A stretch of DNA of 64,000 nucleotides from Psammoneis japonica (lineage: Eukaryota): contig QPGO01000023.1 in NCBI GenBank assembly GCA_008632985.1, positions 679,681 to 743,680 on the forward strand, written 5' to 3'. Position 1 is the stretch's first letter. Each line of letters opens with the position of its first letter. The position numbers and the translations under genes were made by a program. Under the pieces are notes generated by a model that saw only the letters and a list, made by a program, of their open reading frames with translations, ran no database searches and was not told the origin of the DNA. Below, piece by piece: positions 17,579-45,813 of this stretch.

Positions 17579-18829
17579 GGCCGGATCATGGGTCACGGCG
17601 ATTTTTGATGTCTTTTTTTTTGTGCATGCGTGTGCGGTGTTTCGGTGAGACGTGTGAGAAATGTGAGACGCCGCTTGTCGGTGAAACGTGAAACGACATT
17701 GGGACAGTGGGCCCTCTCTCTCTCGTACGGTAGAGAAACGCCCCCAACAGGAGCAGGAGAGAGACTGTTGACCACTGCTGGGGACTCCAAAATTCACTTG
17801 TCAAGAGAATTGTCTTGTTTGAAGTTGACAAGTTGGATCCCAGGACCAAAGCAGCAGGACCGGAGCAGCAACGGCCGTCGTGCAGTTGAGGCAGCATCCC
17901 TCCTCGCCACAGCTGTGAGCTGTGAGACTCTCTTTGGAAGTTGCAACAAGATGGGTCCCAGAGCTGGTGGGGCAATGGCCGTTGCTGTTGCACATCCCAG
18001 AATTCCAATCAAGAGGAGGGCTGGAAGAACGAGTGGTGGTGGCCGCTCTTTTGCTTGCTCCATTGCCACCGCAGTTGCTGGGCAGCCGACACTTGCACTT
18101 GATGCCAGGTGCAAGTCATGGGGGTCTGGTCAAGGGTTACAAAGTGAACTCCAATCTCTGTGACAGAAAATGCAAATGGGGGTGGAACTGATTTGATCAT
18201 GAGCTTGATGCAGCCGGCATCACCGGATGCTGCGAAGAGCATTTGAGTGAAAATGACACCCAAGGCTGTGCCAGCCAGCAGCTCAAACTCGTCTAGAGCA
18301 AAGTCAGGAAAAGGTTGTCGCTGATGGTGGCACTTCAAGAATGGGCATCAGTGGGAGCAACAAAGCACCTGTTGGGAGAGTGAGCTCAGGGTGAAAATGC
18401 CGCCCAATGCAGCCAAACAAGACGCGATGGTTGCACATTTCAACCACAGAAATGTGAACTTTGGCACAAAGCACAGTGGCTCATCTGGTGTTGTCAGCGC
18501 ACACTTGTGCTGAAAAGAGTTCATGTTGATGGAGTGTTTTGTTGACACCAGTGTGTTGCATTTTTGGAAGATTGCAACATGTGTGTGGCTTCAGTGACCA
18601 ACCTGTGATGACATTTTGCATGATGCTGGTGTGCACACTGTCCTTGGCCCTCCTCATTGGCTTGCTGAAAACCATCCTCTTGTGCACTTTTTTGATGATG
18701 GTCAAGCCAGTTCAATTGAATGAAAAATTGTCTTGCAGCATCAGTCACTCAAAGATGTCAATGCAAAGAATTTGTTTTGCATGCTGGCACCTGGATTTTT
18801 TTCAAGCTTTCAAATGAACTTCATCAGCC

Positions 18830-19290
18830 AGCATTTGCCATTTTTTTGGAAACTTTTGTGCCAAGACTGCACAACAAAAATGTGTTCAGACAAGACTCAG
18901 AACAAAAAGGGTGAAAAAGCAAGAAAAGAGTGACAGGAGAGTGACTTTTGCACCATGATGTTGAGGAGCACAAAGAGAAAAGGGTGGGCACATGGGTTGC
19001 CAATGGCTGCAAAAGAACAGCCAGTTTTGCATTTGAAGGGCTTGGGAGACATGTTTGCGTTTGCAGCAAATTTGCTGTTGCTTTGTTGCTGCAACTGCAG
19101 CCAATGATTGGCTGAGCTGCTCAATTTTTGAGAGATGACAAGGTGTGGTGCACACATTTTCACATGATGCAGCACCAGCACAACCTCTGTTTTGAGTTTT
19201 TTCAAGAGCTTGGCTCATCCTGCCACCACTGACCCAGCTTGCACTTTGATGTGCATCAACAGCCATGACACCAAGCTGTCAAACAATGCG
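18830..19290. repeat. Dispersed repeat, diverged copy of ~42000-42440
   Basis: Shared blocks GAGCTGCTCAATTTTTGAGAGATGACA, CCACTGACCCAGCTTGCACTTTGATG and ATTTGAAGGGCTTGGG in the same order. Confidence 0.8.
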
Positions 19291-19755
19291 CGTTGATGCC
19301 CAATTGGACCTGTGCACAGAAAAGCGCACATCAAACATGTCTTGGGATTGGAAAATTTGCAGTCACAGTGAAGTCTCAAAACAAATTTCTTCCACAGACC
19401 TGCCACAATGTTTTTCTGCTTTTGCAGTCTGGGTGTGGCAGTTGTTTTTGTTTGTTGTTGTGAGCAGAGGCATTCATGGCAGCCTGCAGTGTCATCAAGC
19501 CATGCCCTCACCTTGGTTCGAAGCACCACCATGCAAAAAGCAGTCTGGGGCCAAGAAACTTGAAGACAATGTTGGGCTGGGACAACTTGCACAAGGTTCT
19601 GCAATCTCATCCATTTTTAACTCATCATTGCCACCCAAACTGCACATGCTGCCTTGAAGAGCCTGGCCATTTTCAGGCCTCTTCATGGTTGCTGCCATGC
19701 AAATCAGGTGGGGGGCATGTGGAGAAATCCTGGTCTCTGCACAACCAACATTTGT

Positions 19756-19786
<31 letters not shown>

Positions 19787-19789
19787 CCC

Positions 19790-20535
19790 TTTTGCAACAA
19801 ATGTGATGATCCTCTGCAAACAAGGCAAGGATTCCCACTTTGGCCAACAGGTGTCACATCTCCTCTTTCAATTGAAGCCAAACATTTGACAGCTCACAGT
19901 CAAACCATGAAACCACTGCACAGAGTGGTCTGGCACAACAACTTGAGAACAATGAAATCTCATCAAAATTCCAATGCATTGTTGCTCTCCAAACCTTGCA
20001 CCAGAAGGCTGAGGCACTGTGGTTGTCTTCACGGTCACCACCACATTCCCAGGAATTTCTGTGATTTTAAGCACAGGCACTTGGACCCTGAATCAGATGA
20101 GGCATGATGAGCATTCTTAGCCATTGTGCATGACCGACCCTTGTTCTCTTCTCCCATGCAGATGTGATGATCCTCCATGCAAAATGATGCAAGGATTTCC
20201 GCTCTGACTAAACAGGTGTCAGATCTCCTTTCAACAGAAGCCAAATAATGTCGCGAAGTCGAGAAAATGCCCAGTCAGGTCGCATTGCGGACGTTGACCG
20301 CTCAGAGCCCCATCCACCATCCACCATTGAAACATGTTAGCGGTCCAGCACAACTAAAGAGGACAATCTTTGTAAGACTTATGTGAGGTCCTGAAATCTC
20401 ATCGATTTTTTTAAATGTTTTATTGCTGTCCAAACCGCACACTCGAAGAGCTAGGGCATTGTAGGCATCTTCGTGGTCGCCACCGTCGTTGCAAACAAAC
20501 TTGTTTTGATTTGCGCGGGCACTTCGACCCCTGAA
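19790..20535 (-). pseudogene. Two tandem decayed copies of the 3' ~425 bp of the adjacent GT31 gene
   Basis: Units end at CCCTGAA (20091, 20535; gene equivalent ~20960) and share GAAATCTCATC, CCAAACC, TGATCCTC and GCAAGGATT with the gene. Confidence 0.85.
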
Positions 20536-21645
20536 TCAGACGAGGCATGTAGAGTTTTTCCAGCCTTTACACAACCGATTTTCACTCTTTTTTCCATTGC
20601 ATACATGGTGATCCTCCAAATATAAATGACGCAAGGATTCCCATTTTGACCAAACAGGGGATAAATCTCCTTTCAACGGAAAGTAAATGTCGTGAAGTCG
20701 AGAAAATGTCAGATCGGGTACCTTTGCAAACGTTTGACTGCTCACAGCCCCACCATGAAACAAAATAGAGCGGTGTAGCATAACTTGGGGACAACCTTGA
20801 GCTAGGACTTGTGTAAGATCCTGAAATCTCATCGATTTGTTGAAAGTGATGTTGCTGTCCAAACCGCACACTCGAAGAGCTACAGCATTGTAGGCATCTT
20901 CGTGTTTACCATTATTCCAAACAAGCTTCTTCGATTTTGAGCAGGCGCTTAGACCCTGAACAAGATCATCTGACATGATATAACCCCAACCACGGATAAA
21001 CGACAATCTTCTTAATCGTTCTCCGGTTCCAACATATTTGAAATTCAAATGATAGCCTTGTCCTCCAAGAAATCGATGACGGGGCCATGTATTAGAGTCT
21101 TCTAGTAGACGGTCGAGTAGAAGATACGATTCATCATCAAGCTTCATGTGATAGTCAGCCTGAATATTCAAGGAAGCCCATTCATACCACGCATTCATCT
21201 TGCCAGTGTTGTGGACGTCTGAACTGTTCAGCAGTACGACATCGCCATAGTGATCCCGTTCGGCCTGCAATTCCGTTATATTGTGCGTCGCATCCAGAGG
21301 ATTCCCTTGTATTCTGGGTTCTTGTTTGTTTCCAATGAGAAAGTACACAAGGATTGTGCCATCCTGAACCGCGGGATGTTTCATCCACGTATCTCGGTGC
21401 ATTTGCCGACGCATAAAACTTGAACCACGTGGGGGTCTTTCTTCCCAATCAAAGGAAGAGATGATTGCGATTGCAATTTTGCGTTTTGTTGAATTCTCCA
21501 ATGAAGAAGGAACCGTCACAGCGTCAACTTTGGTGGCGACCTTGGATTCTCGAAGAAAAAACGATTGGAATTGGGTGAAATTAACGCTCGCCATAACCAA
21601 GGCCACCAATATAATCACACCCACTTGGACGAGACTTTTCTTCAT
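20536..21645 (-). CDS. Glycosyltransferase family 31 (beta-1,3-galactosyltransferase-like), type II membrane protein
   Basis: N-terminal TM anchor; RRQMHRDTW, VYFLIG, ELQAERDHYGDVV, YHMKLDDESY, GWGYIMS, HEDAY; intact with normal TA/CG content. Confidence 0.85.
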   Translation of the reverse strand: MKKSLVQVGVIILVALVMASVNFTQFQSFFLRESKVATKVDAVTVPSSLENSTKRKIAIAIISSFDWEERPPRGSSFMRRQMHRDTWMKHPAVQDGTILVYFLIGNKQEPRIQGNPLDATHNITELQAERDHYGDVVLLNSSDVHNTGKMNAWYEWASLNIQADYHMKLDDESYLLLDRLLEDSNTWPRHRFLGGQGYHLNFKYVGTGERLRRLSFIRGWGYIMSDDLVQGLSACSKSKKLVWNNGKHEDAYNAVALRVCGLDSNITFNKSMRFQDLTQVLAQGCPQVMLHRSILFHGGAVSSQTFAKVPDLTFSRLHDIYFPLKGDLSPVWSKWESLRHLYLEDHHVCNGKKSENRLCKGWKNSTCLV

Positions 21646-21899
21646 TGTAGACCTTCAATGTGGACAAAATCTGCGTTGCGTTGTTGCACTTTGGTTGCAT
21701 TTAAAAAAAAAAAGAATTGGATAATAGAGACAGATGAGAGAATCATTTCGTGGATTGAAAACCGAAGCTTTGGAGCTTGACAGGAGTTTCGGCATTTTTG
21801 TCACATTCGTGGAAAAAGAGAGAGATAGAGGAGGCGGTTTTCCTTGATGATGATTCGTTCCGTTGAGTGCGCCAAAATTTCAAATTTTTGAAGCAGAAG

Positions 21900-24079
21900 C
21901 GTTGAGGCGAGCGCTTGGCGCGCGCGCACACACCTCGAAAGGCAACTGCCGTTACCACCACCAACGACACCAGTGGCATCACCGAGCCTGCTGCCGCCGA
22001 TGATACCTCCGCCGCTCCTATCGACTCCAACGACCCTCCCATCGACTCTGCCTCCGACAACCATACGCCCTCCACCACCTTCAAATGCATGTTCGACACA
22101 AATCACCCAACCATGGAACCGGGCCCACTCGACCCTGATGCAATCACCCGCATCATCACGCAAACGCTCACTCACCACGCCGACTGTGAGCCTCTCACCA
22201 TCAAACTGTGGGATGTCCAATGCACCTCCACCACAGACATTAACTGCAACACACCATGCAAAACCAAAAATTGGCACTCACCATGCGACATCACCCTCAT
22301 CCCAGCTGCCAACGAAGAGCAACTCGACTTCCAGCTTTTCCACGAACAAGCCATCCGCCTCGTCCAGAATTGGCACGCCACCCCACATGCCACTTTCATG
22401 AACTTACCACCAACGACCAATGCCCACACTGCATCCCTTCCACTTGCCCCCTGGAATTTGCCACTGCCGAGCCGTGGGTCGAACACTGCACACCTCGCAT
22501 CCCTGCCTTCAACAACTTCAAATGCTCCGCTTGTGGCATCCTTGCTGGTGCTTCTCCCAACTGCCATGGTCCCACACACTGCACCATGGAGTTCCTGCTT
22601 GCATGCCTCCACAACCACATCCTTGCCCTCCTTCCCAACCAGGACCCACCTGGAGCCACCATCCAACCAGAGTTCCGCACCTGTGAAACCTTCGTCAATC
22701 ATGTTGGTCTCCGCCCAGCCCGCTGGAAAGGCCGCCGCACCGGACCCTCTGTCAACATCCACTGTGCATGCACCCCCACCGACACTGCTTGGAATGCATC
22801 AACCAGGCTCCTCAATCCACCCGGCAAGGAGTGCAGCAAATTCACAGTCTGCAACATCCCGTTTGCCGTGCTTCCCTTCCCCACTGACACCAACAACGCC
22901 GACTGCCTCGCCCAGCAACTCCTCGCAATTGACCAAGGCCCTGCACAAGCACACTGTGTTCTCACTGCATGCCTGCACACCATCACTGATGCCGACATGG
23001 AGCACAATCTTGCCACCCCACATTGCACCGCCGCCACACCCGTCTTCCTGCCCCATGACAACGCCCCTGCGCACTTCAAACTCCCATTCAAACCCCACCC
23101 CCAGACCATCCACCTCACCAACAGAAATCTGCATGAATGCCCTGGGTTCCCAGCTGACCTCCTCAGCAACATCTGCATGCTGGGACCTCTCCCAAACGAT
23201 CCACCCACCTCCACACCTCAGCCCACACTGATCCCATCACCTCACTGCACCAAAGCCGCCCAAGCTCCACCAGCCCCTGCCATCTCCAGCCTCTCTCGCA
23301 CTGCCTGCACCTCCCTCTCTGCCACGCGGCAATTCCCACCCACCAACATCCCTGCCACCACTGCCCGTGCCTCTCCCAACCCCCGTGCGCCACCTGCTTG
23401 CCCTCCTCCTCAACACCGTTGTTCTCCTGGGCGTGGCGCCCCTGCACCCGGCTGTGGCGGTCGCGGATCCAACCCCAGAGTGAACCCTGGCTGCTCCCAA
23501 CCCCGCCACTCCTCCTCCACATCTGCCAACTCCACATCCAACCCTCCATCCTGGACCCTTGTCAGCCGCAAATGCCGCAACACCAACAGCACCCCACCTG
23601 ACCCCTTTGACACCATCCTCAATGCACCCATCCCTCCGTCCCAATGAGACATCGACAGAGACTGTGTGTCCAATGATGCATGCATGGACAACCTCACCCT
23701 CTTCGGCAAAGACGATGACCCCGATGACAACACCAACGCCATGAATGTGATGTCACAACACGACATCGACCACTGCGCCACCCTCACCACATGGGTCCAC
23801 ACCCATTGCCCTGAGTGCCTTTGAGAATGGAAGCACGCTAAAGCTCAGGCCATTGAAGACAACACCGATCCGCAATCTTTCCACCAGCATCTCCAAGAAT
23901 GGAACCCCCAAGCACCATGTGTCTGGAGTGCCCACACTGTGAATGGTCTCCACCGGAAAATGCCACCACCCAAGACCTCCCCAAGGCAGTCCGAGCTCAC
24001 CTGCGGGCCGAGCATAAAACCCCAGACCTGCGCTTTCTCCCACACGACTTCCTCTCCCAAGCCAACCTGCACTCGTGCC
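21900..24079 (+). mobile_element. 5' part of a decayed CRE-like non-LTR retrotransposon (ORF1-like region and C2H2 finger)
   Basis: Long C/A-rich frameshifted ORFs, then CPHC...HLRAEH...FLSQANLHSC, cut at 24080 by an LTR; same strand and composition as 26590-28935. Confidence 0.6.
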
Positions 24080-24971
24080 TGACAGACATCCGAGATGGGG
24101 AGCACACTCCCTTGTGTCGGACAGACCAGCATGGACAGCATGGAGAGATCCGATGATCTCTCCTTTGCTCACTTTCTTTCTCATCTAGCACACAATTGTC
24201 ATCTGTCCCAGATGTCCATTAGATTGTCCCGACACCGCTAGTCCACAAGGTTGTGAGCAGCAGTGCGCTGTTCCTCTTCCTCCACGCTCCTCTGTTGCAA
24301 TGCCCACTGTGTGATTTGGTGATTTTTCTTCATTGAAATCGTCATCATTGTCAGCCATTTTTTCACCTCTCGATTTGTGATCAAATGACCACCGCAGAAC
24401 ACACACCAGAGCTCTGTGCAGGAATTTGATTTTTTCCCACGCAACCATGGTGAACAAAAATCAAAACACCGTCGATTTGACCAAGATCAAGACGATGCGG
24501 GTTGAATTCAGCCCACATGATCTCTCACCCAATGCACACCGTCACCTGAATGCTCTTTGTTCCAACAAGATGCCTGCTCCTGAAGATCTTCTGGATGGAT
24601 TTGCTCCTCAAGGCCTCAAGAGCGACGCTGTTGCTGTCCTCCATCACAAGATCGTTCACAATCTCATCATCCCCCAAGCTGCCCTGACCAAAGATCTTGC
24701 GCGCATTGGACTGATCATTGAAAAGGCCCCTCTCTTTGTGGCCATCCCTCAAGACTCCCCGGTTCATCTGAACCTCAGTGCTCTTCAGAAGGCTGTGATC
24801 AAAGCGATCTCAGAGAACGATGACACCACAAAAGTGTGTGTTGGGACTTTACGTTTCCATTCAGCACTGTGATCGCTGGGATGATGTCTCAGATGATCCG
24901 CATCCAGACCCACCGCCCACCTCAAGTTCTGCATCCCCGCCGGTTGCTGCCACAGGTCCCACTCCTGAAGA
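24080..24971 (+). mobile_element. Ty1/copia-like 5' fragment: ~168-bp LTR (24080-24247), PBS and start of gag-like ORF
   Basis: TG...CA-bounded segment followed by A+GGTTGTGAGC (24249-24258), one change from GGTTATGAGC, the complement of the tRNAiMet anticodon arm used as half-tRNA primer by copia; ORF MVNKNQN follows. Confidence 0.6.
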
Positions 24972-24974
24972 TTG

Positions 24975-26350
24975 TTTTGGTGTGGGTGGCTCTTGATCAA
25001 CTCATGCGGACGCTTCGTCCAAATCGGTGAGATGTCAAAGAGAATCATCTTGATGGCAGCATGTCCATTGCCACAGCATTGACGAATGATGTCAGGGTGC
25101 TTGGAGTCTGCCGGAAAGATTCCAACCTTCTGAATGTGCTGGAAGACAGTCAGTTTCATTCTGTCAAGTGGCACTCTCATCCGGAGTGGGAGATCATCAG
25201 TTGGATCATTGCCACATGTGAAGCCCCAGTTTCCACCGTCCTTGATAAAGCATCACAGAGGGTGCATGCACACACCACAAGCCGAGGCCTGTTGGGTTGC
25301 AGCAGTGTGCTGTGCACGGATTCCTTGAGGGGAGATGTCCTCACAAGTGAGAGGATCACAAAGGAAAGACTTGGCATCCCAATCAATGTGATGAACAAAG
25401 AGAGAACCATCCGCAAGGATTGGACGCTCAGTGCCATCTTCACAACAAAGGTTTCCAGACTTGTGGGGTGCTGGTGATTTCCCTGGCACTGCTTTCCCGG
25501 CTTCCTTGCGTTGACAGCAAGCTGGTGCATCCTTTGGAAGTCCTTTTGGATTGAAGGTGTGTGGAGCACTGGCGGCAGTCAAGGAAGAAGCCGCACCAGC
25601 AGCAGTCATGACAGACGGCAAAGGAGATGGTGCTGCAGGAGCAGATGTCTTCAATGTGTTTGTCACAGCTTGCTCAGGCTGTTTTTAACCAGGCAAATGA
25701 GCAGCTGAGGCCTTGGCAAAGTCTTCAGGAGTGGGACCTGTGGCAGCAACTGGCAGGCATGCAGAACTTGAAGCAGGCAGTGGGTCTGGATGCAGATCAT
25801 CTGAGGTGTCTTCCCAGCAATCACAACACCAAAAACCAGGGCTGAAATGGAAACGCAAAGTCCCAACATGTGCTTTTATGGCATCGTTGTTCTCTGAGAT
25901 CACTTTGATCACAGCCTTCTGAAGAGTGCTGAGGCTCAGACGAACCAGGGAGTCTTGAGGGATGGCCACAAAGAGAGGGGCCTTTTCAATGATCGGTCCG
26001 ATGCACGCAAGATCTTCAGTCAGGGTGGCTTGGGGGATGATGAGATCATGAACGATCTCATGATGGAGGACAGCAACAGCGTCGCTCTTGAGGCCTTGAG
26101 GGGCAAATCCATCCAGAAGATCTTCAGGAGCAGGCATCTCATTGGAACAAAGAGCATTCAGGTGACGGTGTGCATTGGGTGAGAGATCATGTGGGCTGAA
26201 TTCAACCCGCATCGTCTTGATCTTGGTCAAATCGACGGCGTTTTGATTTTTGTTCACCATGGTTGCGCGGGAAAAAAATCAAATTCCCATGCAGAGCTCT
26301 GGCATGTGTTCTACGGTGGTCGTTTGATCACAAATCGAGAGGTGAAAAAA
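24975..26350 (-). mobile_element. Second, inverted and longer copy of the same copia-like gag region
   Basis: 25722-26350 is the reverse complement of 24358-24971; reading continues with GVCMHPL*CFIKDGGNWGFTCGNDPTDDLP...CCGNGHAAIKMILF; runs into the N gap. Confidence 0.65.
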
Positions 26351-26534
26351 NNNNNNNNNNNNNNNNNNNNNNNNNNNNNNNNNNNNNNNNNNNNNNNNNN
26401 NNNNNNNNNNNNNNNNNNNNNNNNNNNNNNNNNNNNNNNNNNNNNNNNNNNNNNNNNNNNNNNNNNNNNNNNNNNNNNNNNNNNNNNNNNNNNNNNNNNN
26501 NNNNNNNNNNNNNNNNNNNNNNNNNNNNNNNNNN
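26351..26534. other. Assembly gap (N run)
   Basis: 184 N bases. Confidence 1.

Positions 26535-26581
<47 letters not shown>
26535..26581. repeat. (CA)n microsatellite
   Basis: Pure CA run next to the gap. Confidence 0.95.
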
Positions 26582-26583
<2 letters not shown>

Positions 26584-26589
26584 AAGTCA

Positions 26590-28935
26590 ACTCTGCTCTC
26601 ACAGCCACACACCCACCCCACGGCACCACCTGGCCTGCTGCATTGCAGTGGCTCCACACTGTCGAGCTCATGCCCCCACCATTCCGTGCCTCCACATGCC
26701 ACAAGCTGTCTCCCTCCATGCACCACAAAGTCTTCACAGCACCACACCACATCCTCACCTGGACAATTGAATCCATCAAGCCCCTGCAACTCGACTCCAA
26801 CAACCCAGCCCCACCCCATGAATGCACGTCCACACCCTTCTGGAAACTGCTCCTTCTCTTCAAAGCACTCATTCTTGCTCCGCCTTGCTGCTCCCCCACC
26901 ACAAACCCCAAACGCCGCCCATCCGCTTCCTCTGTTGCCTCAACATGCCTCAAACTCTTCCGACAAGGGTGCATCTGCAAACTGCATGACACGGCACACA
27001 CCACCACCCCTCACTCAGCTCCCAACACCCACGCCCCTGACTTCTCCACTTCCACCTGCTGCCGTGTGGCTCAAGCATCCACAGACACCGACAACTTTGG
27101 CGCAGCTTGCCACCGCGTCACCTCCAACCTCCCAGTTGCCACCATTGATGATGCCCGCCTCCAGCTCATCCACAAACTGCACCCACCTCACGCACCATGC
27201 CCACCCCAAGCGCCCACCACCAACACATGACACTCCACGCCCCCCCCCCCATTCCCTCCATGCATCTCCGATGACCACCTCTTTGCTGCCCTCAGCAAGT
27301 GTAAACCCGGCACTGCCACCAGCCCATGCGCTGACTCCACCGACCTCCTCAAAGGCCATGCCCTCTGCAAAACAAGCACCCCCAAGCAGCTGCAACTCTG
27401 CCCGCACCTTGCCACCTTCAAGGAATTCTTGATGATCCTCCAAACCAATTCCGTCCCCCCCTGACATCCAGCACATCCGCCTCCGCCTCCACCATCCCCT
27501 TTCTTGTCTCTCAACTAGCTCGCTCCTTTGATGCGCAACACACGGACTGACTGCAGGCCATGATGACCCCCTCAAACTCCCACCCTTCTGCGCTTGCTTC
27601 CTCCGCACTTGGGCCACCTCCTGCCACCCCTTGCGCCTTTGTCAGGTTTTTCAGCACTGCAGAAAAGCTGCCACACACATCCTCGACCCCCCCCACCCTC
27701 CCCAAAGGCCTTCGTCAAAACACACCCGCTGCGCAACCTTTCCCACACCCTTTGTCATGCACACTTCCAATGCATGCTCGAAGACCTCCATCTGCATGGA
27801 CCATTGCACGTCACCCATGCACTCCCGTCCCTTCTCTCTCCACTTAAAAGTCTCACACTCCACCCCCTTGCTTGCTTGCCACCTCAACAATGCCTGAACC
27901 CTGAGCAGTTCCACCTCATGCTACAATGCAAATTACGGCTCCCCATCTCGCCCCACCAACTCGAATCTACCTCTTGCCCCTCTTGCTCTGGCACCATTGA
28001 CCCATGCGGTGACCATGCCTTCTGTTGCCGATCCCTCAGACACAAAACAACCATGTCCAATGCCATCCGCGATGGCCCACACGCTGCTTTCCAAACACTT
28101 GCCCCACTCTCTGGCATCTGTGCTGACTCTTCCGCCGCACACCATGAACCAACCAACCTGATGCCTCATTCACCCCTCAAATGCCCTGCTGATGTGGGCA
28201 TCCAACTTGCTCCAGCCGCCTCTGCTGCCTCCCCTCTTGGCCACCGACACCTCACTGTTGACGTCACTGTCCCTGAACCTCCCCCATTGCCTGCTCCTGG
28301 CTTGCCTGCCCCCACCCACAACCCTCATGCCGAGGCACACCACACAAGCACAAAACAGAAGTTCAATGGAACCCATGAAACTCAAAATGAAGCAACCCTC
28401 ACATCCGCCCTTAACAACGCTGGCATCCACCTCATTCCCTTTGCTGTTGACCATCTGGGAGCCCCAGGCTACTTTGACCATCGCCTTCTTTTTGGCACCA
28501 ACCAAGACCTCCCCATCCCTGCTCCACCCGCCCCCCACCTTGGAACACCGAAACCTGTTTTCAACACCCAGCTGCCCATGCCACATGTGCATGCACCCGG
28601 AACAATCCCCATCTGCCATCCTCCCTGCCGCCACTGCCACTCAGCAAACCATCTCTGCTGAATGCTTTGGCCCAACCCACCACTCTTCAACACCGTCACA
28701 ATGGGGTCCACAGAGCCTGAGCCTTGCAATTGCCAAATCGCTTGCTGACCAACTGGCCCACCACTCCACCAAACTGCAATCTCAAACATCAAACCCCAAC
28801 TTGAAATCCATCCCTTTTCCTGCCTGCATGACTCAGTTCCACCATTGCTCCATGTGTCTGTCCCTCCCCCCACGCCACCAGGTGATGTTGCACGTGAACT
28901 CCTCATGTGCGCGTGCTGCCAGGCAGTTTCCCTGA
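26590..28935 (+). mobile_element. 3' part of CRE-like non-LTR retrotransposon with CCHC finger and restriction-like endonuclease; RT core largely deleted
   Basis: FWKLLLLFKALILAP, KPGTATSPCADSTDLLK, LQCKLRLPI, CPSC...DPCGDHAFCC, NAIRD, CPADV...LTVDVTV, LIPFAVDHLG. Confidence 0.8.
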
Positions 28936-29639
28936 CCAATGAAACATCACTGATCTGCACTGCAATGGAGAAAAGGACACGTGCTTCACATTGCTCCATC
29001 TTTCACTGGCAACGGGGAACCCAGACACACGATCATTTGCTGGGGTGGTGCAAACATCACCTGACATGATGATCCCCACTTCCGAGTCTCCTTTTGGCCT
29101 GCCCCCCTCTGCGGAGCTTTTGTCCGCTCCCTGCTGGGTTGTTTTTCAGCCCTCACCGTTGGTTCTCTTTTTCATTTGGGATCAATTGCTCTAAATTGCT
29201 GGACTTTGGTCAAGAAAATTCCAGGTTCTCTGTCTGGCAGCTGGGCCTGGCTTGCTCAGGTCCCAGACAGCATGTTTTGCCTTGTGCAGCGGTGGCTCTA
29301 AGATGGCTGCTCTTTTCTTCTTGCACAGGAGGCAGCAGCATTGCAGTTGTTTTGCACTGCAAGAGCACCTTGCAGCCAGCCACTCTTGTGCCAGTGCTGT
29401 GGCTGCTGCTGCCATTGTTGCTGGGCTTCTGGGTTCACACAGGGCCTGGTGGGCAGCCAGCAGCCAAAAGCAGCAATGTTTTTTGCTTTTCGCCATTGGC
29501 TGTCAAGCCCTGCAGCCCAGCTCCATTTCCCCATGACTTCGCTTCCATTTCTTCCTTGGCCATGCATGGCCCTGTCAACAGCCCTCCATCAGTTGTGCAT
29601 GACCACCCTGTCAACTGCCCTTCATCAACTGTGCTTGAC

Positions 29640-29815
29640 CCTTTTGCTTCTTTCTTTCTTTCTTTCTTCTTTCTTTCTCTCCTTCTTTCTTTCTTCTTTC
29701 TTTTGTTCTTTCTTTTGTTCTTTCTTTTGTTCTTCCTTTTGTTCTTCCTTTTGTTCTTCCTTTTGTTCTTCCTTTTGTTCTTCCTTTTGTTCTTCCTTTT
29801 GTTCTTCCTTTCTTC
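29640..29815. repeat. Pyrimidine-rich tract with 12-bp tandem repeat (TTCTTCCTTTTG)n
   Basis: Directly visible; reads as KEEQ repeats on the minus strand. Confidence 0.9.
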
Positions 29816-30049
29816 TCTGCTGGATTGAGAAAGCCAACCAGCAGTTTTCCTGTGGCACAATCTTTGACCAGGCACCTGCCAGCCCTTTTGCTGACTGTTG
29901 AACAGAACAAAAGTTGGTCATGCTGTGAGGTCATGAGTGCCTCCTCTGGCTGTCACTTTAGAACAAAACTTGTCAGCCACCTTTCTGCCTGCCAATGTTT
30001 TCTCAGTCACCACCCCACCACTGCCACATCCTCCTCCCACCCAACTCTC

Positions 30050-31804
30050 CACAGACCTTTCTTCATTTCAAGTTCGACAGACAGACTGTACGTCAAGCGG
30101 AATTTGGGCAGAAAAGTGCAGCAAGTGGACCGGACGCACGTGCGCACGTCTGCATGTGCCGGTGCGGTGCGCAACCTCTGGGGCCCCACCGGTGCGAAGC
30201 AGGGCGAATGGCGGCAACTTTAAAAAGCATCCCAACAATGCCAATGGCCACAGCAGAGCTCTGGACAAAACGCAATGAGCTGCCATCTAGCAGAGCCAAA
30301 CAGTTCCTTGCTTGTGTGTCACAGCACCTGAATTAGACTGAAATGCAAATGCATGCAGAGCAGAGGCATCGCACGCAAACGACGCGAAAAAGCGGTCCCT
30401 GAGCTGCACGTCCAACAATGAGGATGAGCGCGAGATTGATCGCGCTCACTGCAAATGCATGTGAACCAAACAAATCAAACACACAAATGTTGTCCAAACT
30501 TGTTGTGTGAAAGAAATCCATGTGTTGTTGTTGAGTGCAAGCCGAGGAATCGTGCACAAACGACGCGAAAGCGGCTCCAACGCGTCCAACAACGAGGATG
30601 AGCACGAGATTGATCGCGCTCACTGCAAACACATGTGAACCAAACAAATCAAATGCACAAATGTTGTCCAAACTTGTTGTGCAAAAGCCAATCCAGGTGT
30701 TGTTGTTGAGTTCGAAGCAGAGGCATTGTGCACAAACGACTCGAAAGCGGCCCCAACGCGTCCAGCAATGAGAATGAGCACGAGATTGATCACGCTCACT
30801 GTGAATGCACATGAAGCAAACAAATCAAATGCACAAACATTGTCCAAACTTGATGTGTGAAAGCCAATCCATTGTTGTTGAGTTCAAAGCAGAGGCATCG
30901 TGTGCAAACGACACGAAAGCGGCCCCAACACGTCCAGCAACGAGAATGAGCACGAGATTGATCACGCTCACTGCAAACACATGTGAACCAAACAAATGAA
31001 ACACACAAATGTCATCCAAACTTGTTGTGCAAAAGCCAACCCAGGTGTCATTGTTGAGTTCCAAGTCCAGCCATTGCACACAAATGACGCAAGGGCTGTT
31101 GCAGCATGCCCAACAACGAGATGAGCGCGAGATTGATCACGCTCAACTCTAAGGATGCATGACCAAACAAATTAAATGCACAACAATGGCCCAACATTGT
31201 CGCATGTAAGCCAGTCCAGGTGTTTTTGTTGAGTTCCAAGTCCAGCCATCGTGCACTGATGACAAGAAGCGGTTCCTCATGCACCCCAGATTGATCAGCA
31301 GCGCTGGTCACCGAGGTCGACCCCACAATCCACAGCTCAATCCATTTCACTCACAACATGTCAACAACGCGAACAGTGGAATGTCAACACCTTGCTCTAG
31401 AACATGAGACGAAATGAACAACCGTGAGCAAGACAAGTTTGGGCAACAACACACCCAAAAAGCATCAAAACACGAAACTGCACCACATGATGCACAAACA
31501 CAACTCAACACAATAAATTTTCTTACCACAACATGTGTGTGCACACATCAGCCACAGGATGGGGATTGTCACCGGTGTGGAGCCGATCGTCTTCGAAATG
31601 AGCGTCGCAGAGACGAACGCCATTTTCACCATTGGTGATTTTTGAATTTGTGCTCTCGTCGTTGGAAAAGCACCAGAAGCTGTGTACGGGGCGCGGTCTG
31701 ACATCGCAGGGGGAGAGTTGCAACAAGAAATTCTGCCCAATTTCCGCTTGACGTACAGTCTGTCTGCACCCAGGCAAAAATCTTGAAATGAAGAAAGGTC
31801 TGTG
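30050..31804. mobile_element. Non-autonomous DNA transposon with bipartite TIRs
   Basis: Outer perfect 23-bp IR CACAGACCTTTCTTCATTTCAAG (30050-30072 / 31782-31804) and inner 36-bp IR with one mismatch (30078-30113 / 31731-31766). Confidence 0.8.
30350..31260. repeat. ~175-bp tandem repeat, about 5 copies, inside the TIR element
   Basis: GAGATTGATC(A/G)CGCTCA recurs near 30432, 30606, 30782, 30954 and 31128. Confidence 0.9.
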
Positions 31805-34800
31805 TCACTGGCCTGGCACTCTTCTTCTCTGCCACCCCTTCCAACCTCTGACACGTGCATGCCCTGCACTCCCCTCTTGCAATGATGGCATCCTGGCTGC
31901 TGGAGTCCAGTTGATGTTTTGTGACATGCTTGCATGCACCGCTGTCATGGAACTTCAGGAGGCAGCCCATGCATTGCAGCCCTTCTTGAGGTTGCCATTG
32001 ACAAAATGAAGAATGCACTCATCAAACAAAACAGAGCAGAGGAAGGGGTGACTGCAAGCACAAACCACAAGAACATGACCTTCTTTGTTCTCAGCCGGTG
32101 TGCACAAGCAACTAAATTCATGCGGGGTGGCACTGGCGCCATTGGGTGCCAGATTGACCTTGAGTGGGCAAGGGTTCTCTGAGGGTGTGAATGGCTGACA
32201 ATGGTGCAGAAGGTTGTCTCTAACATGTTTTGGTGCTTGTCAAGAATGAAACTCATCAACAAACAAAATCATTGCATGTGTGCTGTCTCTGTCCACCGAT
32301 CTTCAATGTTCTCACTTGTTGGCCATGCATTCTTAGAAACACGCTCATTCACAAACACTTTGATTGTGAAACTTGCAACAAACAAAATCATTACAAACAT
32401 GCTAACTCTGTCCAGTTGTTAATTGTGTGTTTTTACAAATGTCAAGTCATGAATGATTTGACCATTTTTTACCTGCGTGGCCCGATTCGCGGTCAGCGGA
32501 TGCACATTTTTTCACACCACACCACACCACAGACACCAACAGCCGCAATGATGTTGACACGACCCATGTCAACAACGTTGCAGAGGTAAGTTCTTTCTTT
32601 GTTTTCTCATTTACACCAATTGCATGCTCACCAAAGATGTTGTTTGTGCTTTGTTGAAGCTTCACAGGTGGATTGATCGTCTCGTGTGGTCGATTGTTGC
32701 ATCTGTGATGTTGGTGTTTTTTTTTTCGCAGCGTTTGCACCACCACAGCGCATCCGTTTGGGAGCCTTGTGCCTCGTCCCACCCTGCATCCTTTGGCACA
32801 CCTGTCATGCATGTTAACATGGATTTGTGACGTGCTTGACATGTTTTTGAAGGTCTTGGTCGGCTCGTAATCACAGCATGTCATTTTTTGGCGACAACAA
32901 TTTCTTGAAAGTGTTGCATGCTGTGGGAACAAAACGATGCGATGGAGTCTCGGGGACACTCACGATGTTGGCATTTATCAGACAGCCTTCCCACAGTCCA
33001 AAAAAGGCAATCCCATGAGCACAACATAATTGTTTGAGCATTGGACTCGTTTTGATGAAACTTGCACACCTCATGAGCCTTTTTTTGTGCATCTTGTTCA
33101 TGCGTGTGGGCATCTGGTCCTTTTTGACCCTTTCTTCCTACTCTGCAATTGTGCCATCTTTATGATCTGAGGCACAATGTCTCCCACATCATTTTGGGTG
33201 ATCTTGTCAGTGCAACTGCCAGACCAGGTTTTGCACTGGGCAAAACGGAGAAGTGGAGGCTTGTGTGGCCGGGCTCCTTGCCTGCTCTTGGATGCGTGGA
33301 TGCAACGATCCGCTGGTGGCATTTGAGGCCATGAAATTTGCTGGGGTGACTCAGAACTGCCTCGGAAAGGTGACCCAGTGAGCACACTGTGACGTGTGGC
33401 CTCAATGGATTGTTGTTGTGTGTGTTGTTCTACTCACATTTTCATTTTGCCTGTCATGTTTTCAGCATGATCATCTGGGACTGCAAGTGCTGAAAGTGGC
33501 CTTTCCATGCCAACACTCTACATGACACAAGTCCTTTGACAACACTTGTTTGTTTGGGGAGTCAGATCTTGGAGCTTTTGGCATCTAGTGGGTCTAGAGA
33601 GGCATGAGTGTTGGATGAAATGTGGGCCAGGTTGTGAATGGAATTTGGCTGACTTTTGCTGTTTTTTTCTCGACGGTGTGGTTGGTCAGTGCGCGGGTTT
33701 GTGAGTGTGGATGGACTCTCCATTGAGGGCCGCTGTTCTGGAATGCTTCACTCTAGAGTAGAACTTGGTGCAAAAGGTAAGAGATCCATCATCATTTGTG
33801 ATTTTCAACTCATCGTGGTGTTTTTGGCGTTGTCCAATGAAAAGTTGGATGATCCATTTAAAAGACTCACAGCCTTTTGCTGTTCTTTAGAGGTGTGATT
33901 GTGCAGCTCTTGACATTCCAGTTTTCTTTAAGGGTGGGATTGCATCACATGTCATTCGAGAAGTGTTGTCACAGTGTTCTTGCTTGCGGGTTCAGGCCTT
34001 GTCCTGACAGAGACTGGAAAGAATGTCTCATCTTCTTCCCTCTTGCCATTGCTGCAAATGAAGACAATGGCCAGAGTTCATCAGCCACACATCCTCAGTT
34101 CCAAGGGGTTCACTCTGATGGCAAGTTTGATGACATGTCTTGCTGGTGTCTCCAGTTGGAGCAACACACTTGCTGGGGGGTGGTGGTGCATGATGCACAG
34201 GCCAGTGCCACTTGAGAAACTAAAATGGATCATGTGGTGGTGCTCCAGATCATCATCATCACCATCAATGCACAGTGGTTTAAGTTGCTGCCTGCATGAC
34301 ATGCACCCCAAATGTGCTCAGCCTGCATTTGTTGAGTGGGTTCTTGACCCAAGTGTGTTGTCTTTGCAATCTTGATTTGGGAAGCTGCAAGCCATGTCTT
34401 GGGCAGCAACAGCAGCCCCTTGCATGATTTCTCCACACAAGAAGATGCCCAGCTGCACAAGGTGTGAAAGCGCCACACCCACAGATGTGGCAAAAGAGGT
34501 TTGCAGCTGTCTTGGGATGGCATTGGAGGACTCCAGTGGATCCCAGAGGATGCAACGACAACAATGGTTGGGAAGCAAAGGCTTTGTCTTGTGTCCATGC
34601 AGCCCTTTGTCTCTCTGACATGACTGGGTTTCTTGGCCCAGCCACCCTGCCTGCAAAAACAAGAAAACCATGTGTGTGACAGTGCAAGTGCTCTGTTGTC
34701 TTGGGGCGGCCTTGGATGACTTGATCGGGACCCAGAGAATGCAACACCAACCATGGCTGGGAAGCAAAGGCCTTGTCTTGTGTCGGTGTGGCACTTGGAC

Positions 34801-34809
34801 CATGCAACT

Positions 34810-37450
34810 CCCAACCATGGCTCTTTGGGGTTTGCCTTGGGTCCACCAAAGACAGTCAATGATGTTTGAACAACAGTTGTTGGGTGGGTGGGTGCACTCA
34901 TGGTGCTGTTTCACTTCAGAAGTTGGGAATCAAGTCTCACCTGACATTTTGTGAAGTGACATGGGCTGCAGCTGAGGCAGGTTGGCTTTGAAACTCCCTG
35001 CCATGGCACTTTAAGTGTCACCTTGGGTCCACAGAAGACATTCAATGGTGTTTGACAACAGTTGTTTGGTGTGTTGGCACATTCATGATGTTGTTTCACT
35101 TTTGATTTTGGGGCTCAAGTCTCACCCTGACATTTGTGAAGTGACATGGGCCACAGCTGATCCATGGTGGCTTTGCCACTCCCTGCCATTGCTTTTGAAG
35201 CATCACCTGGGGTCCACTGCACACATTCAATGGTGTTTGACAATGGTTGTTGTGTGGGTGGGTGCACTCATGGTGCTGTTTCACTTTTGAATTTGGGAAT
35301 CAAGTCTCACCCTGCTGGCAGTCATGTGAAGTGACATGGGCTGCAGCTGAGCCAGGGTGGCTTTGCTGCTCCCCCACCATGGCTCTTAAAGTGTCACCTG
35401 GGGTCCACTGCAGATATTCAATGGTGTTTGACAACAGTTGTTGGGTGGGTGGGTGCACACATGGTGCTGTTTCACTTTTGATTTTGGGAATCAAGTCTCA
35501 CCCTGACATTTTGTGAAGTGACATGGGCCACAGCTGAGCCAGGGTGGCTTTGAAACTCCCTGCCATGGCTCTTGAAGTGTCACCTGGGGTCCACCAAAGA
35601 AATTCCGTGGTGTTTGACAACAGTTGTTTTGTGTGTTGGTGTGTTCATGATGTTGTTTCACTTCAGAAAATTGGGGCTCAAGTCTCGCCCTGACATTGTG
35701 AGGTGACACAGAGCCAGAGTTGCACCACGGCAGCTTTGAAGCTTCTAACCATGGCTCTCAAAGTGTTGCCTGGGGTCCACTGCAGACATTCAAGGGTGTT
35801 TGACAACAGTTGTTGGGTGGGTGGGTGCACACATGGTGCTGTTTCACTTCAGAAGTTGGGAATCAAGTCTCACCCTGACATTTTGTGAAGTGACATGGGC
35901 TGCAGCTGAGGCAGGTTGGCTTTGAAACTCCCTGCCATGGCACTTGAAGTGTTGCCCGGGGTCCACAGAAGACATTCAATGGTGTTTGACAACAGTTGTT
36001 TGGTGCGTTGGCACATTCATGATGTTGTTTCACTTTTGATTTTGGGGCTCAAGTCTTACCCTGACATTTGTGAAGTGACATGGGCTGCAGCTGAGCCAGG
36101 GTGGCTTTGCCACTCCCTGCCATTGCTTTTGAAGCATCACCTGGGGTCCACTGCACGCATTCAATGGTGTTTGACAATGGTTGTTGTGTGGGTGGGTGCA
36201 CACATGGGCTGCAGCTGAGGCAGGTTGGCTTTGAAACTCCCTGCCATGGCACTTTAAGTGTCACCTTGGGTCCACAGAAGACATTCAATGGTGTTTGACA
36301 ACAGTTGTTTGGTGTGTTGGCACATTCATGATGTTGTTTCACTTTTGATTTTGGGGCTCAAGTCTCACCCTGACATTTGTGAAGTGACATGGGCCACAGC
36401 TGATCCATGGTGGCTTTGCCACTCCCTGCCATTGCTTTTGAAGCATCACCTGGGGTCCACTGCACGCATTCAATGGTGTTTGACAATGGTTGTTGTGTGG
36501 GTGGGTGCACTCATGGTGCTGTTTCACTTTTGAATTTGGGAATCAAGTCTCACCCTGCTGGCAGTCATGTGAAGTGACATGGGCTGCAGCTGAGCCAGGG
36601 TGGCTTTGCTGCTCCCCCACCAAGGCTCTTAAAGTGTCACCTGGGGTCCACTGCAGACATTCAATGGTGTTTGACAACAGTTGTTGGGTGGGTGGGTGCA
36701 CACATGGTGCTGTTTCACTTTTGATTTTGGGAATCAAGTCTCACCCTGACATTTTGTGAAGTGACATGGGCCACAGCTGAGCCAGGGTGGCTTTGAAACT
36801 CCCTGCCATGGCTCTTGAAGTGTCACCTGGGGTCCACCAAAGAAATTCCGTGGTGTTTGACAACAGTTGTTTTGTGTGTTGGTGTGTTCATGATGTTGTT
36901 TCACTTCAGAAAATTGGGGCTCAAGTCTCGCCCTGACATTGTGAGGTGACACAGAGCCAGAGTTGCACCACGGCAGCTTTGAAGCTTCTAACCATGGCTC
37001 TCAAAGTGTTGCCTGGGGTCCACTGCAGACATTCAAGGGTGTTTGACAACAGTTGTTGGGTGGGTGGGTGCACACATGGTGCTGTTTCACTTCAGAAGTT
37101 GGGAATCAAGTCTCACCCTGACATTTTGTGAAGTGACATGGGCTGCAGCTGAGGCAGGTTGGCTTTGAAACTCCCTGCCATGGCACTTGAAGTGTTGCCC
37201 GGGGTCCACAGAAGACATTCAATGGTGTTTGACAACAGTTGTTTGGTGCGTTGGCACATTCATGCTGTTGTTTCACTTTTGATTTTGGGGCTCAAGTCTC
37301 ACCCTGACATTTGTGAAGTGACATGGGCTGCAGCTGAGCCAGGGTGGCTTTGCCACTCCCTGCCATTGCTCTTGAAGTGTCACCTGGGGTCCACTGCATG
37401 CATTCAATGGTGTTTGACAACAGTTGTGTGGTGTGAAGTGATGTGGGCTG
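34810..37450. repeat. ~186-bp satellite, about 14 monomers, with a 1243-bp higher-order duplication
   Basis: GTGAAGTGACATGGG recurs every ~185-190 bp; ORF track entries repeat at a 1243 offset (35015/36258, 35703/36946). Confidence 0.95.
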
Positions 37451-44690: not shown

Positions 44691-45813
44691 TGACACTCTG
44701 CCACGGTGGCAGAGATTGACAGATTCAGCACTCAGCTGAGTTGTGCAAAAGTCAAGAAAAGTGAAGTGAACTTCTGCATCATTGCTGCATCATTGGTTGT
44801 GTTGCCAAATGAAGATTTGGGCTGCTCAAATGACCAGGGCACTGCCCCCCCCTCCGCCCCCCCTCTGCCGTCACACTGCAACTCACACCTCGGACTCCAA
44901 ACATTTTTTCTGCATGATTTCTGCACAGCCTGCCTGCACAGCTTGCAGCAATGGTGGCGCAGCAACTTTGAAGATGCAAGCTCTCTCTGACCTCTGAGAA
45001 CGCCGTTTCTGTCAGATGCGCTGCATCTCGCCCTCCCCCGTGCTGGTGCTTTTGGCGAGCACAAATTCTCAGAGTGCAGCGCCATTGAGTTTGGTGTGTT
45101 CACCACACATGGGCCCATCTCTTTCCCATGGCAGCAGCCCCATTTCTTGTCTTATAAAACTCAGTTCCAACAGCTTCAAACCAATGTGAAAAACACCGCA
45201 CACAGACCTCCAATGTGGGAGCGCGGTGAATAAAATGTGGAGTTTTGGTCTGACATCATCACTGTAACCATCACAGACTCATGTCTGTGACAGAAATCCG
45301 AACACTGCTGGAGACATCGAACGACGTGTTCGCTTCGTTCGTGACTTCTTCTCATTAAGACCGTTGAGCGGTGTCAGTCATGGTCATCAATCGCGTCTTT
45401 CATTAAATGCTGTAAAGTACCGTAGGCCCCGTACGACGTTCTACTGACACACGGACATCTTCTTAGATCCGCGATCTTAGTCCCGCGTCGATGCTGGTTC
45501 CTGATCTTCCTTTGGTCGTCAGCTAAATAAAATATTATGATACATACATGATTGAATGATGAACATTTGACACCCGGTCATTCTCAAACGTCAATTTCAC
45601 GTAGAAATCTACGATAATTCAATGGTGACTTTCGTTGCAGAGACATTGACGAAGATCGAAACGAGAATCGATTGACCATTTGTTACGAGCAACACACAAA
45701 AATTAAAAAAAAAATCCTCCCAGCCCTTGGTGCTAAATACTCTTTTCAAACCTTCTCTTTTCTTACTTCAAAGTTTCTGCGACCTACGAACTTCTACTTT
45801 ACAAACAAATATA

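Follow-up and report, generated by a model that had tools for sequence, protein, structure and literature searches.

TpA and CpG loss bounded within the duplicated tail of a GT31 gene in the diatom Psammoneis japonica

The GT31 gene tail, its two copies and the depleted blocks

The DNA analysed here is a window of 64,000 nucleotides from the diatom Psammoneis japonica (GenBank assembly GCA_008632985.1, contig QPGO01000023.1, forward-strand positions 679,681 to 743,680; all coordinates below are those of the window). A total of ~25 kb of it, lying in two blocks, has lost nearly all TpA (TA) and much of its CpG (CG) dinucleotides, and one border of these blocks runs through a tandem array derived from the 3' end of an intact gene of the GT31 galactosyltransferase family. 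The gene (20536-21645, minus strand, 369 amino acids) was recognised by its open reading frame (ORF), by a match to Pfam PF01762 (Galactosyl_T; E-value 3e-11, 43.9 bits against a curated cut-off of 23) and by seven homologues of 46-64% identity, whose alignment has 70 invariant columns, covers the C-terminal third and keeps motifs such as WAKWESLR. Since these homologues span the C-terminal part of the protein, the segment of the gene that was duplicated, its last ~430 bp (20536-20966, minus strand), is part of a real gene. Next to it lies a proximal pseudo-copy (~20100-20535, minus strand), which carries in-frame stops at codons 279, 332 and 362 and is depleted only in its outer ~100 bp, and beyond that a distal pseudo-copy with internal deletions (~19787-20099, minus strand). 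The distal copy is flanked on its outer side by a (TTCT)8 microsatellite (19755-19786, plus strand), and a microsatellite of the same type recurs inside the second block (29628-29833).

That the tail of the gene (~425 bp) is repeated twice had been proposed in a preliminary description of this DNA, and was confirmed. Local alignments of the three copies scored 174, 51 and 45, against a mean of ~10.5 and a maximum of at most 16 among shuffled sequences (200 shuffles each). A repeat search found families spaced 429-443 and 361-366 bp among the copies, and the ~430-bp array was recovered by this search together with a MAFFT alignment; it had been missed by Tandem Repeats Finder because the copies are merely ~70% alike (pairwise identity ~69-73%). 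The strings on which the description relied are correct: the gene reads CGGTGTAGCATAAC at 20771, matched by CGGTCCAGCACAAC at 20341 and TGGTCTGGCACAAC at 19926; TATAAATGACGCAAGG at 20621 is matched by TGCAAAATGATGCAAGG at 20178; and the gene's CTTAGACCCTGAA appears as CTTGGACCCTGAA in the distal copy.

The three copies differ sharply in what they retain. TA and CG number 18 and 15 in the gene segment and 11 and 20 in the proximal copy, and the distal copy has one of each, as anticipated by the statement that the proximal copy keeps many of these dinucleotides and the distal copy almost none. Within the proximal copy, the outer ~100 bp account for 1 TA and 1 CG, and the remainder for 10 TA and 19 CG. 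This copy has also gained TAs, which make its stop codons (CAA to TAA, TGG to TAG and TGG to TAA). Because the two copies have derived states in common at codons 321, 329 and 354, the sequences suggest that there was a single initial duplicate, which was doubled later. The summed depth of the contigs of a sequencing run over 20628-21547 is 3-5 times the single-copy level, and these contigs are 85-90% alike; the sample would thus contain several GT31 paralogues or alleles.

A dinucleotide profile of the window at 1-kb resolution, with limits set by step fitting, delimits the two depleted blocks. Block 1 (17745-20195, 2451 bp) contains 5 TA (relative abundance, rho, 0.03) and 26 CG (rho 0.19), with rho 1.86 for CA and 1.77 for TG. 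Block 2 (22073-45150, 22,894 bp excluding N) contains 90 TA (rho 0.065) and 459 CG (rho 0.31), with rho 1.71 for CA and 1.82 for TG. The island between them (20200-22065, 1866 bp) is of normal composition (64 TA, rho 0.47; 98 CG, rho 1.01; CA 1.18; TG 1.19) and reaches from ~340 bp beyond the stop codon of the GT31 gene to ~420 bp ahead of its ATG. In the flanks, rho is 0.57-0.58 for TA and 0.96-1.01 for CG. The G+C content of blocks and flanks is nearly equal (47-51%).

What the blocks have lost is closely balanced by what they have gained. Per kb, the flanks hold 39.5 TA, 55.7 CG and 144.7 CA+TG, and the corresponding values are 2.0, 10.6 and 225.6 in block 1 and 3.9, 20.0 and 219.7 in block 2. 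In block 1, 82.6 TA+CG were lost and 80.9 CA+TG gained per kb; in block 2, 71.3 were lost and 75.0 gained. The loss of TA extends beyond that of CG: TA is absent from 17732 onwards, and CG is kept until ~18500. In the part of block 2 at 22-33 kb, rho is 0.34-0.88 for CG and 0.03-0.17 for TA, and strong CG loss is seen at 34-45 kb. At the right edge of this block, CG is back from ~44.9-45.0 kb and TA from 45153, and the combined TA+CG step was fitted at ~45315. The other borders obtained by step fitting are at ~17740 and ~22070. No tRNA gene was found at any block border.

The border inside the array is a step and not a gradient. The preliminary description held that the loss fades towards the gene in the manner of a spreading chromatin mark. 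The share of TA+CG among pyrimidine-purine dinucleotides is 10/287 to the left of ~20195 and 121/330 to the right (twice the difference in log-likelihood, 117.5), with a best estimate of 20190/20200 and a support interval of 20178-20246. In fits of a logistic transition, widths of 1-80 bp performed equally, a width of 160 bp was worse by 3 log-likelihood units and one of 320 bp by 7.5, and the transition spans at most ~350 bp. Moreover, CG is more numerous in the proximal copy than in the gene segment (20 against 15). The proposed fading was therefore abandoned. The step falls within the proximal copy, not between the copies. Gene conversion was considered as a means by which the proximal copy kept its TA and CG, and was rejected as a general explanation: along this copy the identity with the gene ranges over 0.65-0.79, and one 60-column stretch alone reaches 0.90 (20413-20472).

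Direction and specificity of the changes

Compared with the gene, the distal copy is changed at 12/12 TA sites (5 to TG, 5 to CA, 1 to AA and 1 to AT), so that 10 of the 12 became CA or TG, and at 11/11 CG sites (5 to CA, 2 to TG and 4 to other dinucleotides), against 137/301 for all other dinucleotides (Fisher p 1e-4 for TA and 2e-4 for CG). It had been stated in advance that the idea would fail if TA sites were lost no faster than other A/T sites. They were lost faster: all 12 TA were changed, against 40 of the 87 AA, AT and TT (p 2.8e-4).

Three-sequence parsimony over 322 aligned columns of the gene, the proximal and the distal copy gave branches of 30, 38 and 45 changes, respectively. On the distal branch 36 of the 45 changes are transitions and 9 transversions, and the distal copy also carries indels. 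Two TA sites are common to the gene and the proximal copy and aligned in the distal copy, which reads TG at both. Because parsimony alone left only these two polarised TA sites, the conserved residues of the protein homologues were used as a second means of polarisation. At codon 232 the gene has CTA (Leu), the homologues have Leu in 7/7 and the distal copy has CCA; at codon 252 the gene has TAC (Tyr), the homologues have Tyr or His and the distal copy has CAC; at codon 321 the gene has TAC (Tyr), the homologues have Tyr in 6/6 and both copies have TGG; and at codon 342 the gene has TAT (Tyr), the homologues have Tyr or Phe and the proximal copy has TGC. Since the TA-bearing codons of the gene encode the residue that is conserved in the homologues, TA can be taken as ancestral at these four codons. 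Together with the two TG in the distal copy, they bear out the proposed polarity of TA to CA/TG. A single TA has even gone both ways, as had been claimed: codon 290, CTA in the gene, is CTG in the proximal and CCA in the distal copy.

Mutation in place elsewhere in the blocks

Changes of the same kind distinguish repeat copies inside block 2. An inverted repeat (left arm 24358-24971, plus strand; right arm 25722-26350, minus strand) shows 58 differences over 614 aligned bases, 56 of them transitions; 51 fall within the set CG, TA, CA and TG, and 7 outside it. Among the sites within this set are 16 doublets of CA in one arm and TG in the other, 16 sites with CG against TG or CA and 3 with TA against CA or TG, and both arms have CG at 13 sites and TA at none. 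Under a simple model, ~2.5 of the doublets would have come from CG and ~13.5 from TA, and each arm would have converted ~0.95 of its TA and 0.38 of its CG, at rates roughly 500 (TA) and 80 (CG) times background. For a protein-like ORF of 163 amino acids in the left arm (24381-24869), no homologue was scored among 23 candidates, which were of near lengths only.

Repeats in direct orientation bear the same marks. In a satellite of ~186 bp, arranged in a higher-order unit of 1243 bp (34774-37444, plus strand), 8 columns among 7 monomers are CA/TG doublets, and two other pairs of direct repeats have 3 and 4 such doublets. Because direct repeats carry the same CA/TG doublets as the inverted repeat, strand-flip artefacts are excluded. 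The two 1243-bp units of the satellite are ~100% identical, which indicates that this unit was duplicated after most of the TA and CG had been lost. A further tandem array of 5 copies with a period of ~175 bp, 61-84% alike, occupies 30409-31227, in a sub-domain where CG is fairly common.

In block 1, a remnant of a DUF819 membrane-protein gene, its last ~120 residues (17929-18275, minus strand), was detected by Pfam (PF05684; E-value 2e-5, 24.2 bits, under the cut-off of 27), by phmmer and, with two pieces joined, by tblastn (E-value 4e-22). Both conserved Tyr of the aligned stretch are replaced, one by His (ELYLAS to DLHLAS) and one by Cys (GYATAT to GCATAT). With the host-gene-derived GT31 copies, this remnant upholds the earlier view that sequence other than transposable elements (TEs) is affected. 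The remnant ends ~220 bp ahead of the start of a neighbouring ankyrin-repeat gene, and a diverged, apparently intact DUF819 paralogue is present in the run contigs. One companion run, which mainly covers genic parts and has GT31 and DUF819 paralogues, was given no weight, its kind being a guess. None of the 106 stop-to-stop ORFs (23 + 83) of the two blocks has a viral or TE Pfam domain, although heavy mutation could mask a foreign origin; none of the 106 reached a curated Pfam cut-off, the DUF819 match itself being sub-threshold. The remaining matches, weak and cysteine-rich (Toxin_35, 0.0019; Cys_rich_FGFR, 0.0018; MAML2_TAD, 0.0012; BssB_TutG, 0.0018; DUF4389, 0.079), were judged to be due to chance or composition.

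The 95 TAs left in the blocks are not a random sample. They comprise 24 in TTAA, 20 in CTAA/TTAG, 19 in GTAA/TTAC, 1 in ATAT and none in ATAC or ATAG, while the shares of these contexts among the TAs of normal DNA are 16.8% for ATAC, 10.5% for ATAG, 8.6% for ATAT and 4.5% for TTAA. The contexts of the survivors differ from those of normal TA (chi-square 161.6) as well as from those of CA/TG in the blocks (94.4). When the sites are sorted by the base that follows the edited A on its 3' side, whichever strand carries that A, survival increases in the order T, C, G, A. This order fits an enzyme that reads one strand, and it suggests a three-base target preference, where an effect of the -2 base on the same strand is inseparable from one of the +1 base on the other strand.

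The composition of some neighbouring stretches was also recorded. At 22001-29000, a zone free of TA and partly depleted in CG, the GC skew is -0.41 to -0.52 (the plus strand being C-rich), and the long Pro/Ser/Thr-rich ORFs found there are probably artefacts of the missing TAA and TAG stops. At 46001-47000, where a large gene (ORF 45676-48357) has an acidic repeat region rich in Asp, Glu and Tyr, rho is 1.79 for CG and 0.45 for CA. The genes of the window are long and intron-poor. In keeping with a diatom source, the best matches of its GTP-binding protein (55-58% identity) are to proteins of diatoms, among them Cyclotella, Seminavis, Thalassiosira and Skeletonema.

Possible causes of the loss

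We consider it probable that the blocks record a region-limited hypermutation of TpA to CpA/TpG, accompanied by decay of CpG, in silent chromatin and targeted by position. The parts of this statement that concern the direction of the changes, their dinucleotide specificity, their products, their action in place after duplication and the sharp border are direct observations, and we hold them with high confidence. Two processes would be involved. One would turn TpA into TpG or CpA, that is A to G on one or the other strand, and would have gone near to completion; the other would turn CpG into TpG or CpA less completely, in a domain nested within the TA-free domain. Both would be confined to silent chromatin, whose edge would coincide with the limits of the transcription unit of GT31. 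The targeting would follow position and not sequence homology, because of three similar copies just the one inside the domain, with 100 bp of the next, was mutated. The tandem pseudo-copies serve as an internal control, since one and the same original sequence lost TA and CG on one side of ~20195 only. Age alone does not explain the contrast, because the three branches are of similar length.

The TpA part of the process would be of the same kind as the TpA-only hypermutation described in the chlorarachniophyte Bigelowiella natans (Mettrop et al., bioRxiv 10.64898/2026.01.13.699255). According to the text of that preprint, 231 of 302 nuclear mutations in mutation-accumulation lines lay in two integrated viral regions, and 230 of these 231 were A to G or T to C, all on TpA. 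The rate was ~1000 times background (de novo, ~1e-7 to 1e-6 per site per generation), the process occurred in some lines only and the regions were silent; clusters poor in TpA and rich in CpA+TpG occur elsewhere in that genome, and the authors' candidate enzyme is an ADAT2-type deaminase (bioRxiv 10.64898/2026.01.13.699255). As far as this text goes, neither diatoms nor CpG are mentioned in it (bioRxiv 10.64898/2026.01.13.699255).

Judged from the same text, the two cases agree in that A:T becomes G:C at TpA, giving TpG or CpA depending on the strand, in that the regions are discrete, and in that TpA depletion goes with an excess of CpA+TpG; the thresholds used for the B. natans clusters (rho of TpA at most 0.43, of CpA+TpG at least 1.52) are far surpassed in our window. 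They differ in several respects. B. natans is a rhizarian and P. japonica a diatom; the TpA rho of the regions is 0.45 there and 0.03-0.07 here; the targets there are giant-virus and virophage inserts, whereas here they include host-gene-derived DNA and no viral or TE domain was found among the 106 ORFs; only TpA is affected there, whereas CpG is lost here too (11/11 in the distal copy, block rho 0.19-0.31); and the evidence there consists of de novo mutations, here of a fixed footprint only. In the literature we found no report of TpA loss or TpA hypermutation in diatoms, and the B. natans preprint was the sole report of TpA hypermutation that we found. The phenomenon is not categorically new, since P. 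japonica appears to represent a second lineage with a process that has been described once; in this diatom it is saturated and accompanied by CpG loss.

As to the enzyme, ADAR proteins are metazoan and act on double-stranded RNA. The TpA step may be enzymatic adenine deamination in DNA in the context T-A-N, a suggestion that we would put somewhat short of an even chance. Hyper-editing by ADAR with its 5' U preference, the APOBEC/AID enzymes and the action of ADAT2 on DNA are discussed as editing defences in the preprint (bioRxiv 10.64898/2026.01.13.699255). Like the edits of such deaminases, the changes seen here are A to G beside a 5' T, clustered, strand-wise and inactivating; unlike them, they are fixed in genomic DNA on both strands.

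For the CpG part, the cause would be deamination of 5-methylcytosine, through which CpG in methylated DNA decays to TpG/CpA. It resembles what is seen here in the CpG deficit with a matching excess of TpG/CpA, strongest in non-genic, repeat-rich DNA with genes spared, but it explains the CpG half only, as TpA loss is no product of cytosine methylation. The alternative is that one enzyme or mark, such as a deaminase of both A and C, acted on TpA and CpG alike, the CpG loss being the work of the same defence. We regard this as improbable, though not negligibly so. Both losses end at 20195 and both yield CA/TG, and ADAT2-type enzymes have been reported to edit A as well as C in DNA (cited in bioRxiv 10.64898/2026.01.13.699255). 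However, the two losses differ in extent at the left end of block 1 (17732 against ~18500) and over 22-33 kb, their rates in the inverted repeat are ~6-fold apart, and the process in B. natans, as far as described, is TpA-only. CpG methylation has, moreover, been analysed in one diatom genome: a Phaeodactylum study includes CpG methylation calls, with DNA methylation among the marks on genome features, and describes repressive histone marks on TEs (PMC4504042).

A homology-dependent defence resembling repeat-induced point mutation (RIP), where the gene would have been preserved by selection alone, appears quite unlikely. RIP, the classical repeat-triggered transition hypermutation, operates in ascomycete fungi, where it changes C to T mainly at CpA, creates TpA, is triggered by homology, mutates all copies and lowers the G+C content. 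The affected DNA beside the gene did arise by duplication, repeats abound in block 2, and the blocks have in common with RIP the saturating, context-specific transitions in non-genic or repeated DNA, the dinucleotide signature and the sharp limits. The direction, however, is the opposite: TpA is destroyed and not created, being nearly absent, CpA/TpG are doubled and the G+C content is unchanged. Position, and not homology, would decide here, since the gene segment and most of the proximal copy are unmutated; with its three in-frame stops the proximal copy is free of selection, and the step disregards the boundary between the copies. In addition, the stretch of ~1.5 kb that separates the distal copy from the DUF819 remnant is equally depleted and has no repeat longer than 60 nucleotides within the window.

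Three further explanations are, in our judgement, very unlikely. That age and not place made the difference, the distal copy being the oldest and having decayed neutrally in a genome that disfavours TA, would suit the age of the copies as seen in their divergence, the under-represented TA of the flanks (rho ~0.57) and the distal branch being the longest, but it is hardly credible when branches of 30, 38 and 45 changes end in TA/CG counts as different as 1/1 and 11/20 for the distal and proximal copies, the proximal copy gained TAs as stop codons, the step lies inside a copy, and the arms of the inverted repeat turned over almost all TA with ~7/614 other differences. Equally implausible is that the blocks are foreign or selfish DNA that was already poor in TA and CG on arrival (for instance through selection on UpA/CpG in RNA, or in another host): the satellites and inverted repeats of block 2, the lack of a long ORF (0/106) reaching a curated Pfam cut-off and the viral inserts targeted in B. 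natans would agree with it, yet the adjacent host gene is the source of the distal copy and of 100 bp in the proximal one, a DUF819 remnant of host type shows the changes as well, the differences between repeat copies lie nearly all among CG, TA, CA and TG and hence arose in place after duplication, and the mass balance matches conversion of flank-like DNA. There is likewise scarcely any chance that the pattern is an artefact, with TA and CG really present and modified bases of heterochromatin (5-methylcytosine, N6-methyladenine or other) miscalled: the window is from a scaffold with an N gap, the inverted repeat at the gap has CA/TG doublets such as strand-specific fold-back miscalls would yield and the sequencing platform is off record, but contigs from a public run (word depth ~65) reproduce 2.1 kb of block 1 (17613-19746) with 3 differences and one inserted base and 0.66 kb (19795-20452) with none, symmetric miscalls on two strands would be expected to give a mixed consensus and not a clean absence of TA and CG, direct repeats have the same doublets, and the distal copy has indels and 9/45 transversions.

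Several points weigh against position-targeted hypermutation in silent chromatin, or limit it. Parsimony alone strictly polarises only 2 TA sites on the distal branch, the numbers in the duplicate are small, and parsimony alone assigns 5 TA/CA-TG differences to the gene branch. The proximal copy, mostly outside the block, has another dinucleotide at 14/17 gene TAs, CA or TG in 8 cases, and the distal copy shares two of these TA changes. Its other dinucleotides are changed at 167/391, and the comparison of TA with other A/T dinucleotides gives p 0.017. Either the border has shifted, or the first copy was exposed before it was doubled, or the changes are parallel ones; the 14/17 differences hint at past exposure. 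The mass balance presupposes that the blocks started with a flank-like composition. As the CpG loss differs in extent from the TA loss, it may be an unrelated, ordinary process. The right arm of the inverted repeat ends exactly at an assembly gap of 184 N (26351-26534), and the differences between the arms are those of the assembly sequence; the run by which block 1 is confirmed may itself have been the source of the window's assembly, its platform being off record.

The remaining points concern the assumption, made in the preliminary description, that the functional gene approximates the ancestor. It served well at the conserved TA codons and less well at 20775 and 20907, where the state of the gene appears to be derived. 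The copies are joined at 20775, against the gene of the window, by all 5 run contigs and by the homologues (Asp); at 20907 they have the paralogue contigs on their side, which carry 3 extra bases near 20905. The contigs have C at 20775 and the window G, which makes codon 291 His against Asp in the homologues. An error of the assembly, an allelic difference or a change specific to the gene could account for the discrepancies at 20775 and at 20903-20907. On the sequences compared, the gene appears to be a good but imperfect ancestor.

Even so, the locus is a rare natural control, in which three copies lying across the border establish how sharp the edge is, which way the changes ran and how specific they were, without an outgroup genome. 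More tentatively, and with clearly less than even confidence, we suggest that diatoms share with the chlorarachniophyte an adenine-editing DNA defence, an old and widespread system of the stramenopile-alveolate-rhizarian lineage that in this diatom would be saturating, aimed by chromatin position and neither by homology nor by foreign origin, so that fragments of host genes lying in the domain are erased too, stopped a few hundred bases from a transcription unit and dependent on a three-base context. On that suggestion, TA would be removed first where T or C comes next on the edited strand and last within TTAA, which would point to a strand-reading deaminase and not to a symmetric methyl mark. 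The flank preference, the border at the transcription unit and the rate, ~500 times background under the model, give handles for a search for the enzyme.

For annotation, such blocks are a source of spurious long ORFs, since they can contain no TAA or TAG stops, and they hide the origin of DNA from homology searches. The removal of nearly every TpA over tens of kb is very unusual and has been described only once so far, in the 2026 preprint and in a distant alga. Its saturated footprint in a diatom suggests a wide occurrence of the process in marine protists, a group of major primary producers, in which it would shape repeat landscapes, the decay of pseudogenes and local mutation rates.

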